A DNA stretch of 64,000 nucleotides from contig CM069142.1 in assembly GCA_035221665.1 (NCBI GenBank), positions 58,094,001 through 58,158,000 of the forward strand, given 5' to 3'. Both the position numbers and the translations under genes were made by a program. This DNA comes from Okamejei kenojei. Taxonomy: Eukaryota. The notes under the pieces were generated by a model, which saw nothing but the letters and a program-made list of their open reading frames with translations, had not been told where the DNA came from and made no database searches. Shown here piece after piece: positions 22,021-59,585 of this stretch (the stretch's first letter is position 1; each line of letters starts with the position of its first letter).

Positions 22021-22736
22021 AGTAAATGAAGGGTGGGGGGAAAAACTGCAGATGCTGGAAATATAACATAGCACTGGAAACACTGGACGGGTTAGGCAGC
22101 ATCTCTGGCGAAAAGGAATAGGTGACGATTCTGATCGAGACGATTCATGTTCTTGTGTTTGATTACACTTGATGGGCCGAATGGCCTAATTCTACTCCTA
22201 TTCCTTATGACCTTACGTGGACTCCGCCATTCAATCATGACTGGTCCATCTCCCCCTCCTAACCCCATTCTCCTGCCTTCCCCTCATAACCTCTGATACG
22301 ACGTATATATCCAGAGATACTGCCTGACCCGCTGAATTACTCTAGCTTACTTGTGTCTATATTCGGTGTAAACCAGCATCTGCAGTTCCTTCCTACACAC
22401 TTCACTGGCCAGTTGTGCGCTCCTGGCCCCTGTCACACACTGCGAACACCATGCCAGAACACCAATTACTGCTCAACGGGAAGTGCTGGAGAAACTCAGC
22501 TGGTCAGGCGGGAGTTGGACAGACGACGTGTCGGGACGGGACCCATCTTCAGACTGGAAGGTCCAGACCCGAAACATTATCCGTCCTTTTTTTTTTTACC
22601 CCAAATATGTTGGTTTTTTTTCAAATATAAAACAAGATCACAAATGGACAGACAACGTTTTGAGTCGGGACCCTTGAACAATCTGAATTGCAGTAAATGA
22701 GGCCACAGATTTGCAGCTAGCAAATATGTTTACCAT

Positions 22737-22921
22737 ATAAGACAAAATTGCTGGAGAAACTCAGCGGGTGCGGCAGCATCTATGGAGCGAAGGAAATAGG
22801 CAACGTTTCGGCCCGAAACGTTGCCTATTTCCTTCGCTCCATAGATGCTGCCGCAGCCGCTGAGTTTCTCCAGCAATTTTGTGTACCCTCGATTTTCCAG
22901 CATCTCCAGCTCCTCTTGAAC
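22737..22921. mobile_element. Fold-back PLE-terminal short element with 11 bp TSD
   Basis: Near-perfect palindrome centred on aacgtttcggcccgaaacgtt. TSD atgtttaccat at 22726-22736 and 22922-22932. Confidence 0.85.
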
Positions 22922-23399
22922 ATGTTTACCATGAATATATATTTCTATAAAACGCAGCGCTGGAGGAACTCAGCGGGTCTGGCAGCTTCTGGGGGAGGGA
23001 ATGAATAGGAGACGTTTCGAGTCGGGACCCCTTTTAATGATCGTCCGTTGATTCCCCCCACAGATGCTGCTTGGCACGTTGAGTTCCTCCAGCACTTTGT
23101 GTTTTGCTTAAGATTCCAGCATTGGCAGTCCCTTGCGTCCCCTTGTAATTTGTGTTGGCAACCGTTGCGAATAAGCGAGCGCGTGTAAATGTACAGCGAT
23201 TGACAATGGCGAGCGAAAAACGTGGATTGTTAGCGAAACACAAAGCGCGGGGGGAATTCAGCGGGTCAGGAAACGTCTGTGAATGAAATGGACAGACAGG
23301 TCGGGACCCTTCTTCAGTCTGACTGCAATGTGGTGTGGAGTGGACCTGGGAAAGAGAGATGAGGCGGGACAAATTTGGCAAGTGATAGGTGGATACATA

Positions 23400-24085
23400 A
23401 GATTATAAGAACATACGTGATAGGAGCAGAATTAGGCCATTCGGCCCATTAAGTCCATTGAATAGAATAGTGAAAGGCATGGATAGAGTGGATGTGGAGA
23501 GGACGTTTCCACTAGTGGGGGTGTCTCGGACTAGAGGTCATAGCCTCAGAATTGAAGGACGTTATTTTAGGAAGATGAGGAGAATTTTATTTTGTCAGAG
23601 GGTCATGGAGGCCGTCAGTGGATATTTTCAAGGCAGGGATAGACAGATTCTTGATTAGTACGGGTGTCAGGGGTTATGGGGTGAAGGCAGGAGAATTAGG
23701 TTAGGAGGGAGAGATAGATCAGCCATGATTGAATGGCGGAGTAGACTTGATGTGCCGAATGGCCTAATTCTACTCCTCTTCCTTATGACCTTACGTCTAC
23801 TCCGCCATTCAATCGTGGCTGATCCTCCTAACCCCATTCTCCCGCCTTCTCCCCATGACCTCTGATACGACCTATTTCTAAGCCCTTCGAGCCTGCACCG
23901 CCATTCAATATGATCATGGCTGATCATCCAACTCAGTATCCTGCACCTGCCTTCTCTCCATACACCCTGATCCCTTTAGCCACAAGGGCCACATTTAACT
24001 CCCTCTTAAATATAGACAATGAACTTGCCTCAACTACCTTCTGTGGCAGAGAATTCCAGAGACTCACCACTCTCTGTGTGAAAAA
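23400..24085. mobile_element. Cluster of CR1 3' fragments in both orientations
   Basis: KGMDRVDVER.FPLVG.SRTRGHSLRI on +, plus minus-strand tails. Confidence 0.8.
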
Positions 24086-55900: not shown

Positions 55901-58590
55901 CCCCCCCCCCCCCCCCCCCCCTCCCCCCCCCCCACCCCCCTCCCCCTCCCCCCCCCCCTCCCCCCCCACCCCCCCCCCCCCCCCCCCCGCTCCCCCCCCC
56001 CCCCCCCCCCCCCGCCCTCCTCCCCCCCCCCCTCCCCCCCCCCCCACCGCCCCCAACTCCCCCCCCCCCCCCCCCCCCCCCCCTCCCCCCCCCCCCCCCC
56101 CTCCCCCCTCCCCCCCCCCCCCCACCCCCCCCCCCCCCCACCACTCCCTCTCCCCCATCCTGCCTCCACCTCCCGCCCCCCCCCCTGCCTCCGCCCCCCC
56201 CCACCCCCCCCCCCCCCCCCTCCCCCCCCCCCTCCCCCCCCTCCATGCTCCACCCCTCCTCCCCTCCCCCCCCCCCCCCCCCTGTGAGCGCCCCCCCCCT
56301 GGTCACCGGCTCCCCCCACCCGCCCCCCCCCCCCCCCCCTCCTCCCCCCCCCCCCTCCCCCCCCCCCCTCCCCCCCCCCCCCCTCCCCCCCCCCCCCTCC
56401 CCCCTCCCCCCCCCTCCCCCTGCTCCNNNNNNNNNNNNNNNNNNNNNNNNNNNNNNNNNNNNNNNNNNNNNNNNNNNNNNNNNNNNNNNNNNNNNNNNNN
56501 NNNNNNNNNNNNNNNNNNNNNNNNNNNNNNNNNNNNNNNNNNNNNNNNNNNNNNNNNNNNNNNNNNNNNNNNNNNNNNNNNNNNNNNNNNNNNNNCCCTC
56601 CCGCCCCACTCCCCCCCACCCCCCCCCCTGCCCCCCTCCCCCCCCCCCCCCCTCCCCCCGCCCCCCCCCCCCCCCCCCCCTCCCCCCGCCCCCCCCCCCC
56701 CCCCCCCCCTCCCCCCCCCGCACCCCCCCCCCCCCCCATCCCCCCCCTCCTCCCCCCCCCCCCCCCGCCCCCCCCCCCGTCCCCCTCCCATATACGGTCC
56801 CCCCCCCNNNNNNNNNNNNNNNNNNNNNNNNNNNNNNNNNNNNNNNNNNNNNNNNNNNNNNNNNNNNNNNNNNNNNNNNNNNNNNNNNNNNNNNNNNNNN
56901 NNNNNNNNNNNNNNNNNNNNNNNNNNNNNNNNNNNNNNNNNNNNCCCCCCCTCCCCACTCCCGCCCCCACCCCCCCTCACCCCGCCCCCCCCGCCCCCCC
57001 CCCTACCCCCCCCCCCCGCCCCCCACCCCCCACCCCTCCCCCCGTTACGCCGCCCTCCCCGACCTCCCCCCCTCTCCGCCCCCCCCACCCCCTTCCCCCT
57101 CCCCCCTCCCCCCCGCAGACGCTCCCCCCCCGCCCCCCCCCCCCCCGGCCCCCTGCCCCTGGGGGGTGACCCCCCTACCCCCCAGCCACCCCCCCCCACA
57201 CCCTGCCCCGGGCCCCTCCCCCCCCAACCCGACCCCCCCCCCCCCCCTCCCCCGCTGCCGGGCGCCCGCCGGCCCGGCCCTCCACCGGCCGAGCCCCCCC
57301 TCTCATACCTCGCGCCCCCGGCCCCGCCCGCCCCCCCCCCCCCCACCTCCCCCCCCAGCCCCGCCGCCCCCCCCTCCCCTCACCCCCCAGGCCCCCCCCG
57401 CCCCCCCCCCTCCAATAAGAATAGCGCCCCCCCCCCCCCCCCCACCCCCCTAAGCACTTCCCCGCCCACCCCCGTGAGCCAAAAAACCCCCCCCCCCCCC
57501 CCCCCCCCCCCCAGCTCTCCCCCGCCCCCCCGAGGACCCCCTTGCCCCCGCCCCCCCGCCCCTCCAGCCACCCCCCCACCCCGGCCCCCCCACCCCCCCC
57601 CCCCCCCCTCCCCCCCCCCCCCCGCCCCCCACTGCCCCCGGCCCCCCTCCGCCCGTTACCCCCGCCTCCTGAACCTGCCCCCCCCGTGCCCCCTCCCCCT
57701 CCCACGCCGCCCCCCCCCGCTCCCTCCACCACCCAAGCTCCCCCCTCCCCCCGCCCCACCCCCATTCCCACCCCCCCGCCCCGCCCCTCCACCCCACCCC
57801 CCCACCCCCGCACCCCCCCCCCTCCCACCCCCCCCCCCCCCCCCCCCCCCCCCCCCCCCCCCCTACGCCCCCCTCCCCCCCCCCCCCCCCCCCCACCCCC
57901 CCCCCCCCCCCCCCCCCTCCCCCGACTCCCACCCCGGGCTCCCCCCTCCCGGCCCCCCTCCCCCCCGCCCCCACCCCCGCCCGCCCGTCGACCCCACACA
58001 CTGCCCCCCCCCCACCCCACCCCCCCCCCCCCCCCCTCCCCCCCCCCACCCCCCCCCGCCTCCCCCCTCCCCCGCCCCCCCACCCCCCACCCCGCCCCAC
58101 ACGATAGCCCCCCTCCCTCCCGCCCTCCCCGGCCCCCCCCACTCCCCCCCCCTCCCCGCCCGTCCCCCCCCCCCCGGGCCCCGCCCCCATCCACCCCCCC
58201 CCCTCACCACCCCCCCCCCCCCCCCCCCCGCTCCCCACGGCCAGCCCCCGCCCTCCCCTCCCCCGGCCTCCCACCGCCCCCCCCCGCCCCCCCCCCGCCG
58301 CACCCGCCCCCCCCCCCCCCCCCCCCCCCCCGCGCCTCCCAGCCCCAGCCCGCCCCCCCACCACCCCCCCCCCCCCCCCAGCGCCCAACCGCCCCCCCTC
58401 CCGTCCGCCCCCTCCCCCCCCCCCGCCCCCGGCCCCCCCCCTCCTCCCCCCCCGCCCCCCATCCCCCCGCCCCCCCGCGTCCCCCCCCCCCCCCGGCTCC
58501 CCCCCCCCTCCAAGCCCCCCCCCCCCCCCCCCCCCCCCCCTCCCCCCCCATCCCCCCCCTCCCCCCACCCCCCCCCCCCCCCCCCCCCCC
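52929..58590. other. Assembly gaps (N runs) and low-quality poly-C sequence
   Basis: Six N blocks separated by almost pure C. The same 36 bp sequence appears on both sides. Confidence 0.9.
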
Positions 58591-59116
58591 TTCCTTTATT
58601 TCATATGCCCCTCCCTTCCCTGAGCCACTGCTGACCAAAGATCTTAGAGCGGAGCAAGATGGTTCACTCCGCGAAAAAGCCGTAGTAGCTGATGGGTAAT
58701 CTTCAGCGACATTCCCGTAACCGGCTTCTGTCATGGCGGCGTCATCTACAAGCGGAGCGTACTGATCCGCTATAATGGCAGGGTTCTTCGTCATTCCATT
58801 TCGTAAATGCAGCAGTTCCACACTTTAATTCTTTGTTTTAATGTATAAGTGCTCTAACAATAGTAAGAAAGACTGCGGTAATTAAAACTATCGGAATTAC
58901 TTTGGCGGCACCTCTGCGATTCATCTCCTGTACATTCCACCCCCCCTGAATATTTTATCTGGGGTTTTAGACTGAGCTAATCTTGCAGAGGGTTGACGGA
59001 TTTTCCTTGCTAAAGGATTACCTGCGACTTAACAAAACCTCAAATCCTCTGTATGCTGGATCAGACATAACTCAGGGTATTTCTTCGATCTTCATGATGA
59101 TGTACCTTAATGTCAA

Positions 59117-59279
59117 GGATAGACACGAATAGCGGGAGTAACTCAGCGGGTCAGAAGAAGGGTCTCGACCCGAAACGTCGCCTGTTCCTTTTCTCCAGAG
59201 ATGCTCTCTGACCCGCTGAGTTGCTCCAGCTTTTTTTGTCTATCTTCTGTTTAAACCAGCATCTGTAGCTCCTTCCTAC
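59117..59279. mobile_element. Fold-back PLE-terminal short element with 13 bp TSD
   Basis: TSD accttaatgtcaa at 59104-59116 and 59280-59292. Confidence 0.85.
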
Positions 59280-59585
59280 ACCTTAATGTCAATATGTTTC
59301 CAAATTTATTGAGTGCAATGTTATCCATTCCCATTTTTTTGTTTCAAAGCTTCTCAGCGTGTGATTACCAAATTGCAGACAATTTTGCCAAATTTCAGGC
59401 TACCATTGTGTTGTGAACTTATGACTGTACTCTGTACCTGTCCGATCCATGTACCTGTCTAAATGTTTCTTAAAAGTTACGATATGCAAAAAAAGGTTGC
59501 CGACCCCTGGACTAAACCAAACCATTGATCCTGTCACGCCAGCCTTTGTGTTCATTGATATTTTATTCACAATATTAGGATTTCA

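Follow-up and report, generated by a model that had tools for sequence, protein, structure and literature searches.

The window analysed here, a stretch of 64,000 nucleotides of the skate Okamejei kenojei (assembly GCA_035221665.1, contig CM069142.1, positions 58,094,001 to 58,158,000), is crowded with copies of a short repeat unit, many of them paired head to head into hairpin-like insertions. These repeats are very probably, as judged from their sequence, the ends of Neptune-type Penelope-like elements (PLEs). The insertions themselves are probably severely 5'-truncated copies from at least three related Neptune-type subfamilies, reduced to the end of the pseudo-long terminal repeat (pLTR) and formed anew at insertion. 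The original prediction, made from the sequence alone, had described a separate, non-autonomous, retrozyme-like family of small RNAs. That description is not supported, as the unit is the pLTR, no tandem array of it was found in 1-52700 and ends are not in excess at the hammerhead cut site. Its proposal that the GIY-YIG machinery of PLEs is involved, on the other hand, is supported by coding remnants and by the identity of the unit with the pLTR.

A family profile built from 15 natural copies and run over the whole window found 44 pieces of the unit, about one per 1.5 kb. With seven short or weak pieces omitted or merged, 37 arms form the curated set; their limits were taken from the profile search and alignment, and the counts of end positions given below are a tabulation, not a fresh test. 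Unit positions are numbered from the first base of the hammerhead core. Three subfamilies, A, B and C, were assigned by eye and are distinguished by the helix II loop, the tail and the upstream untranslated region (UTR). For other organisms, reads and contigs from four public runs of three organisms were aligned to element W (below). The RNA run (X22) is single-cell cDNA sampled at about 1 in 100 reads and unsuited to circles, while the other sets are DNA contigs, which over-represent unique flanks; 15 of the 143 joints for this element are listed.

Five insertions with exact target-site duplications (TSDs) carry much of the argument:

22726..22932: element J, subfamily C; TSD 22726-22736 and 22922-22932 (11 nt); tail-less inverted arm 22737-22811 (minus strand); tailed forward arm 22812-22921 (plus strand); junction in the palindromic helix II; arms 97% identical
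24410..24623: element M, subfamily A; TSD 24410-24426 and 24607-24623 (17 nt); tail-less inverted arm 24427-24510 (minus); tailed forward arm 24507-24606 (plus), starting near the hammerhead cut site; arms 86% identical
35849..36060: element T, subfamily C; TSD 35849-35862 and 36047-36060 (14 nt); tail-less inverted arm 35863-35912 (minus); tailed forward arm 35913-36046 (plus), starting at unit -2; arms 91% identical
59104..59292: element W, subfamily A; TSD 59104-59116 and 59280-59292 (13 nt); tail-less inverted arm 59117-59154 (minus); tailed forward arm 59150-59279 (plus), starting at unit -1; reference for the runs of other organisms
40458..41778 (plus): element V, subfamily A, forward only; TSD 40458-40471 and 41765-41778 (14 nt); 5' part 40472-40555; 3' part and tail about 41714-41764
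40556..41706 (minus, limits approximate): fragment of a long interspersed nuclear element (LINE) nested in element V, a later insertion; RVT_1 match, E 2.1e-15

Each of the five direct repeats (11, 17, 14, 13 and 14 nt) occurs exactly twice in the window, where the original prediction had placed it, never on the other strand, and lies flush with the ends of its element. Only 1 of 300 random position pairs reached an exact repeat of at least 11 nt, despite a looser search window. At four loci the insert between the repeats, of 185 (22737-22921), 180 (24427-24606), 184 (35863-36046) or 163 nt (59117-59279), is an inverted partial copy joined to a forward copy, as had been described, and every junction is different. 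Element V proved to be forward-only, again as expected, and spans 1.3 kb for no other reason than that the LINE fragment sits within it. The variation in TSD length from 11 to 17 nt, together with the asymmetric termini, supports the earlier view that these are retro-insertions and not products of cut-and-paste transposition. The duplications have a GC content of 36%, compared with a background of 45%. Four more TSDs, all imperfect, belong to elements A, U, F and Fp, and a search around elements C, P, D, K, Q, G, R, S and E found nothing convincing.

The further fold-backs and single arms on which we draw are:

4756..5005: element A, fold-back; TSD 4756-4769 and 4992-5005 (14 nt, one mismatch); tail-less arm 4770-4851 (minus); tailed arm 4862-4991 (plus)
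36662..36947: element U, fold-back; imperfect TSD of about 11 nt; inverted arm of 26 nt; in the forward arm, about 100 nt of UTR precede the hammerhead
18488..18684: element D, fold-back in opposite orientation, with the tail on the left arm; tailed arm stops near the cut site; tail-less arm starts at unit -1; TSD search negative
22945..23140: element K, subfamily B, fold-back with a tailed forward arm; TSD search negative
32359..32538: element Q, fold-back; inner end of the tail-less arm at unit 0, of the tailed arm at unit 41; TSD search gave nothing convincing
19688..19843 (plus): element F, complete single arm (19700-19830, unit -2 to tail end); TSD 19688-19699 and 19831-19843 (12-13 nt, one indel)
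19839..19919 (minus): element Fp, tail-less single arm (19852-19906); own TSD 19839-19851 and 19907-19919 (13 nt, two mismatches); tail-to-tail with F

Part of the tail of element A is repeated in tandem, with a period of 25 nt (4931-4978).

The first regularity, absent from the original prediction, concerns the outer ends and the tail. Within the unit, positions 1-28 hold a minimal type I hammerhead motif; the body follows up to about 95 and the tail up to about 130. The outer ends of the arms are bimodal: 17 of the 37 lie at unit 78-100, another 17 at 116 or beyond, and three elsewhere, which places the two positions about 33 nt apart. Both ends reappear in the other organisms. The tail end is seen as loose ends at 59281 in 1821 RNA reads, with random letters beyond (agreement 0.35), and the second end at 59230, followed by about ten further family letters, in 1611 reads and in 777, 718 and 719 contigs. 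Where units are paired head to head (11 pairs, two of them too decayed to score for the tail), the tail is present on exactly one arm in all nine scorable pairs (p 0.002 if arms are independent). Among the 15 listed of 143 joints, 10 change strand, at 10 different places; since the junctions in the window also all differ, the hairpins were mostly formed anew and not copied from a hairpin master. A separate joint going back from 59230 to 59172 (59 nt) occurs in 52 RNA reads (28 starts, X22), is absent from the three DNA contig sets as listed and does not lie at the cut site; it perhaps represents one expressed locus with a tandem duplication.

The second regularity concerns the 5' ends, which range from unit -100 to 57. 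It had been noticed that forward copies often begin at or near the hammerhead core, and 11 of the 37 arms do stop at unit -3 to +1. Per nucleotide at risk, the hotspot has 11 stops in 57, the stretch downstream of it 22 in 1709 (Fisher p 2e-9) and the stretch upstream of it four in 237. The count is inflated, because the profile itself starts at unit -2; an independent boundary, either a TSD or the opposite arm, is available for 7 of the 11 stops. At loose ends in the DNA contigs, taken over three organisms, the consensus resembles the family for no more than the 7-10 letters immediately before the core. Around the hammerhead cut site there is no excess (four stops in 270 nt at risk), and cleavage was therefore rejected as the source of the 5' ends. 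Going by the usual consensus motifs, the hotspot coincides with an initiator-like motif, followed by a word resembling a downstream promoter element (DPE) at +28 to +32. The initiator matches in three of the four copies checked; as 17% of background initiator matches reach an equal DPE score, this is weak evidence for a promoter. An internal initiator and DPE promoter has been described in the pLTR of Drosophila virilis Penelope (PMC2377424). We tentatively place the start of the transcript first among the possible causes of the hotspot, with the reverse transcriptase (RT) running off the 5' end of the RNA, in competition with a splice acceptor or RT stalling. A pyrimidine tract and AG precede the core, as in D. 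virilis; a spliced template is not favoured, as no upstream exon is shared among 21 upstream stretches. In the open-licence literature, which leaves Repbase and Dfam outside, we found no paper on the skate family or on such a hotspot.

The assignment to PLEs draws on coding sequence in and around the following features:

30413..31308 (plus): PLE 3' end, made up of a GIY-YIG C-terminus (30413-30541), UTR with a repeat resembling a short interspersed nuclear element (SINE; about 30628-30915), UTR (31128-31206) and a decayed subfamily-B hammerhead unit (31253-31308)
31311..31437 (plus): element P, complete subfamily-A arm inside a subfamily-B pLTR
17426..17512 (minus): inverted GIY-YIG C-terminus, its UTR running left, abutting element C
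17505..17655 (plus): element C, subfamily-B forward arm with tail and some 23 nt of UTR upstream
31772..32014 (plus): GIY-YIG endonuclease remnant and upstream cysteine linker region; join to a pLTR not demonstrated

The three GIY-YIG remnants that had been suspected are real by tblastn (31772-32014 and 30413-30541 on the plus strand, 17426-17512 on the minus strand). For the first, 14 of 17 candidates are homologues, and all seven of those named by NCBI are elasmobranch proteins, from skate, rays and sharks, the best being a Leucoraja protein at 77%. It aligns at 59-75% with elasmobranch RT/GIY-YIG proteins bearing a Neptune-type cysteine linker; the CX2-5CxxC linker that precedes the endonuclease is present in the aligned homologues and decayed in the window, and the match to PF01541 is weak (E 0.011, under the cut-off). 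The other two pieces match the C-termini of elasmobranch RT/GIY-YIG proteins.

It is the second piece that leads to the unit. Across 30413-31308, one strand carries in succession the end of the open reading frame (ORF), UTR and a decayed subfamily-B unit, with alignment scores of 65 for the UTR (shuffled maximum 40) and 40 for the unit remnant (27), and the inverted ORF end adjoins a tailed subfamily-B arm at 17505. A zebra-shark PLE protein (P0009) continues for 138 residues beyond the end of its endonuclease, and its final stretch is identical to the translated unit at 9 of 12 positions. Four of the 37 arms extend 23-100 nt upstream of the core into the UTR, and 9547 RNA reads with upstream letters (7111 + 2436) give a family-like consensus (agreement 0.52 and 0.47). 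The ORF-UTR-unit order, the read-through in P0009, the upstream-running arms and these reads identify the unit as the pLTR, and subfamilies A and C are homologous to B over hammerhead, body and tail. An out-of-frame endonuclease end read by eye in protein P0133 was not confirmed by tblastn, and exact-pattern scans of viral and of metagenome contigs gave no matches in either. Three ray proteins, P0005 (mucin-2), P0008 (divergent kinase domain 1C) and P0063 (chitinase-domain protein 1), contain PLE RT/endonuclease sequence; these are exonised elements or gene-model errors.

As to how the fold-backs form, we lean towards the joining of two separately primed cDNAs. The template for this proposal is PAc, the Poseidon element of Anolis carolinensis, for which both strands were cut and extended in vitro, two internal RT starts bounded the tail and a dimer was predicted (PMC11167929). 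By analogy, the PLE protein would nick both strands of AT-rich DNA 11-17 nt apart, a spacing read from the TSD lengths. RT would then start inside the RNA at two sites about 33 nt apart, near unit 95 and 130, if the fixed ends we observe correspond to start sites as they do in PAc. Each nick would prime its own cDNA, one per start site, probably through a protein dimer, and would thereby yield fixed outer and free inner ends, as observed. Both cDNAs may end early, very often at the hotspot just before the hammerhead core; among the causes considered, this would most likely be the RNA 5' end in the upstream pLTR, giving a product akin to a 'strong-stop'. The cDNA ends would finally be joined head to head, often through short microhomologies offered by the hammerhead palindromes. 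The order of the product is the one seen in the window (TSD, tail-less inverted arm, tailed arm, TSD), and a single surviving cDNA would leave a single arm, with or without a tail.

The most serious competitor, which we nevertheless consider rather unlikely, accepts the same PLE ends and derives the inverted arm from one cDNA, or an antisense template, that primes itself at a palindrome (snap-back), later deletion at the hairpin tip making the junctions asymmetric. Element J fits it well, as its junction lies in the helix II palindrome and its arms, 97% identical, both carry a private variant; junction palindromes have been read as self-priming in rotifer Penelope (PMC3846280). The arm lengths fit it badly. 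In four of nine fold-backs (D, K, M and Q), it is the tail-less arm that extends further in the 5' direction, by 21-41 nt, and thus holds sequence missing from the tailed arm, which excludes a snap-back copy of the tailed cDNA unless a deletion followed and contradicts the systematic simple fold-back of one cDNA originally predicted. The tailed arm is the longer in T, U and W, and the two are about equal in A and J. Moreover, 17 of the 37 arms are tail-less, several of them as lone insertions, so the second start site works independently. Elements F and Fp are a case of separate tailed and tail-less insertions: they lie on opposite strands, tail-to-tail and 21 nt apart, with their own overlapping TSDs. 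The variant common to them is found in 2 of the 37 arms, and a tail-to-tail joint of such ends also occurs in two contigs of run X9. They are possibly both cDNAs of one event resolved apart, or a result of gene conversion.

Several observations weigh against truncated PLE ends joined from two cDNAs, and we gather them here. Private variants are common to both arms in J and M, and in 4 of 11 pairs each partner ranks among the three arms nearest to the other; snap-back or gene conversion would leave such traces too. The best strand-changing joint is no single occurrence, with 14, 11 and 15 contigs in three runs, so some re-amplified hairpin is possible. The analogy with PAc crosses clades, PAc being a Poseidon and not a Neptune element. 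The link to PLEs is drawn through subfamily B, one of three subfamilies, and the shark protein; for A and C, to which all five elements listed first belong, the searches gave no direct connection to an ORF. The read-through search with the subfamily-A translation gave three proteins, none with a PLE domain, and the upstream UTR of element U did not match the ORF-linked UTRs. No full-length PLE master is seen in the window, the 44 unit pieces contrast with three ORF remnants, and only 4 of the 37 arms pass upstream of the hotspot; a short RNA mobilised in trans would also give the last two proportions.

Such a mobilisation would have the 130-nt unit transcribed alone from an internal initiator promoter and moved by PLE protein as a SINE-like, linear derivative. 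This is the reading nearest to the original prediction, though the RNA would be neither circular nor tandem; we think it improbable. Consistent with it, 33 of the 37 arms are confined to the unit, the stop at the initiator-like motif is sharp, the loose-end consensus in DNA of three organisms is family-like for just the last 7-10 nt before the core, and all three proteins of the read-through search contain a copy spanning roughly core to tail end; action in trans on pLTRs (PMC3846280) and non-autonomous elements in Chlamys (PMC8557442) have both been described. Against it, arms of subfamilies A and B extend variably into the upstream UTR, the upstream letters of the 9547 RNA reads form a consensus like that of the family (agreement about 0.5), and the RNA run has no shared start or end peak, though its library shows such peaks poorly.

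A bolder version, similarly doubtful, is a self-renewing, Pol II-driven, SINE-like PLE derivative with a promoter over the hammerhead and two RT starts, in which a dimer would prime both strands and the cDNAs would be joined. The single hint of a short re-amplifying master is the one recurrent joint, in 11-15 contigs per run. If this were true, each complete copy would regenerate the promoter and the RT site and would need no defined RNA 3' end. It would also account for the inverted pLTR and tail throughout the PLEs, and would set up a small class of non-autonomous elements separate from retrozymes.

A non-LTR retrozyme, with tandem hammerhead repeats giving unit-length circles that reinsert, is very unlikely. 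The type I hammerhead motif would suit it, as would TSDs of more than 4 bp, which retrozymes are reported to have (PMC7229834), the 1-6 contigs with head-to-tail joints in each DNA run, the stops of D and M within 2 nt of the cut site and a 2026 preprint deriving retrozymes from pLTRs (10.64898/2026.07.22.740005). Yet this unit is in none of 30 tandem-repeat rows (TRF, 1-52700); the hammerhead is minimal, not canonical, with no helix III and a 2-bp helix I; the ends are fixed at PLE tail boundaries and not permuted; the cut site lacks an excess of ends; and among the 15 listed of 143 joints no RNA read has the unit-length back-joint, in sparse single-cell cDNA that is unsuited to circles. A DNA-transposon miniature inverted-repeat transposable element (MITE) deserves almost no credence: the hairpin look, the size of 160-190 nt and the high copy number recall one, but TSD lengths vary (11, 13, 14, 14 and 17 nt), the centre differs in every copy, many single arms bear TSDs and the termini are not mutual inverted copies, the tail being one-sided; the asymmetric termini and variable TSDs refute this reading.

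For the hammerhead itself the evidence is divided. The claim that the repeat bears one holds at the level of the motif: the unit has the core boxes, an extra base before helix II and two palindromic bases in place of helix III, helix II is paired in 92% of cells and each of two helix I pairs in 11 of 12 copies. It is seen in element F:

19703..19730 (plus): hammerhead motif of the minimal type I, with the core, the extra base, a helix II of 4 bp and a helix I of 2 bp; helix III is lacking, and the cut is predicted after 19730; motif definition from PMC4209133

The claim does not extend to structure. Overall pairing is 83%, against 17-54% in slid controls, but shuffles do equally well; no compensatory base changes were seen in the pairing of 12 copies; and minimum-free-energy folds of four of five copies are no better than shuffles and do not recover the hammerhead, only fold-back D being stable (z -5.3). 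Rfam gave no match at the gathering threshold, which weighs little because minimal hammerheads fold poorly. We therefore speak of a minimal PLE-type hammerhead at motif level. RNA reads over it are strand-biased 4-6 fold; this was not used, as library orientation is unrecorded and internal priming at A-rich stretches is possible. Such motifs are described as weakly active (PMC4209133), and PAc inserts without need for hammerhead cleavage, its hammerhead being dispensable (PMC11167929).

The copies are mostly old and shared, with partner arms 63-97% identical. The left junction of element W is bridged by one contig of organism D (31-letter rule), and contigs of organisms B, C and D run 22-28 tail letters into its right flank; as contigs of other organisms cross its junctions, element W is probably shared and old. 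The suggested search for an empty orthologous site found none among the 15 listed of 143 joints in three other organisms. Subfamily-A arms lie within older subfamily-B pLTRs at about the same point (26915-27075, 31235-31440), hinting that PLEs target their own pLTRs. Further family arms are:

13019-13111
19314-19423
21203-21342
22041-22146
22306-22399
22478-22612
23228-23400
24675-24813
26946-27043
33218-33312
33603-33726
37328-37435

Density is exceptional at 22000-24850, where at least eight family insertions fall within less than 3 kb, interspersed with LINE ends. The arm at 26946-27043 directly precedes the last coding exon of a RUNX gene (27067-27621, plus strand; RunxI domain, E 3e-47), which ends in VWRPY among dense repeats and which we take to be RUNX1-like. 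Elsewhere, inverted repeats (48332-48444 and 48584-48696, 94%; 48584-48696 and 51249-51361, 89%) flank decayed coding-like DNA at 48332-51500. Three ORFs tested there had no Pfam match, and the arrangement suggests a DIRS-type tyrosine-recombinase retroelement. Poly-C or pyrimidine-rich tracts with N gaps (52800-58600 and 59700-61700; 1558 N in the window) are probably poorly resolved sequence and account for spurious proline/glycine ORFs. Beside the first is a short unique open stretch (58600-58824, minus strand), the tested part of which has no Pfam match. GC-rich tandem arrays (43851-44244, periods 47, 55 and 102; 44746-45005, period 94; 45182-45388, period 75 nt) keep frames open on both strands, and the end of a second high-copy repeat (59436-59478) was recovered by all four runs.

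For annotation, stubs of this kind matter because they are dense in batoid genomes (44 pieces in 64 kb) and resemble MITEs. They also form a natural data set for a question named as unsolved in PMC8557442, namely how the inverted pLTR and the one-sided tail of PLEs form. With very many short copies and clean TSDs, the one-tail rule, the arm asymmetry and the 5' hotspot can be counted genome-wide, and such counts would separate two-cDNA priming from snap-back.

The closest known systems are the endonuclease-bearing (EN+) PLEs, whose insertions are typically cut down strongly from the 5' side, with a truncated copy in inverted orientation next to them and a tail of 30-40 bp on one side (PMC8557442); PMC8969392 gives the same general description. 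Units of Neptune, Penelope/Poseidon and Naiad share with ours the head-to-head inverted copy, the one-sided tail of about 33 nt, the variable junction, the TSD, the minimal hammerhead in the pLTR and the GIY-YIG ORF upstream. The skate copies differ in being reduced almost wholly to the pLTR end (160-190 nt), at about one per 1.5 kb, and in 5' ends that pile up just before the hammerhead core. In rotifer PLEs the inverted pLTR is 37 bp shorter and the TSD is 8-10 bp (PMC3846280), against 11-17 nt in the skate. PAc matches in the two ends bounding the tail, the AT-rich targets and the hammerhead upstream of the start sites; it belongs to another clade, and the available text of PMC11167929 reports neither an inverted structure from two primed cDNAs nor a 5' stop hotspot. 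Minimal PLE hammerheads agree with the unit in the core boxes, the extra base, the G-C pair opening helix II and the two palindromic bases replacing helix III. PMC4209133 describes dual motifs on opposite strands, in pairs 100-700 bp apart, and ascribes dispersed single ones to truncated PLEs; the skate motif differs in its 4-bp helix II and 2-bp helix I, and cartilaginous fishes are not named in the portion of that paper at hand. In retrozymes, units with one hammerhead each are repeated head to tail in tandem arrays, and the RNAs are circular (PMC7229834; 10.64898/2026.07.22.740005). The non-LTR kind is likewise short, non-coding and PLE-related, with a type I hammerhead and TSDs of more than 4 bp, whereas the skate stubs are dispersed and head-to-head, with minimal hammerheads and PLE tail ends. 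The skate hairpin insertions thus follow a pattern already described for PLEs, to which they add one new detail, a 5' stop shared by many stubs, which gives a hint of how they arise.

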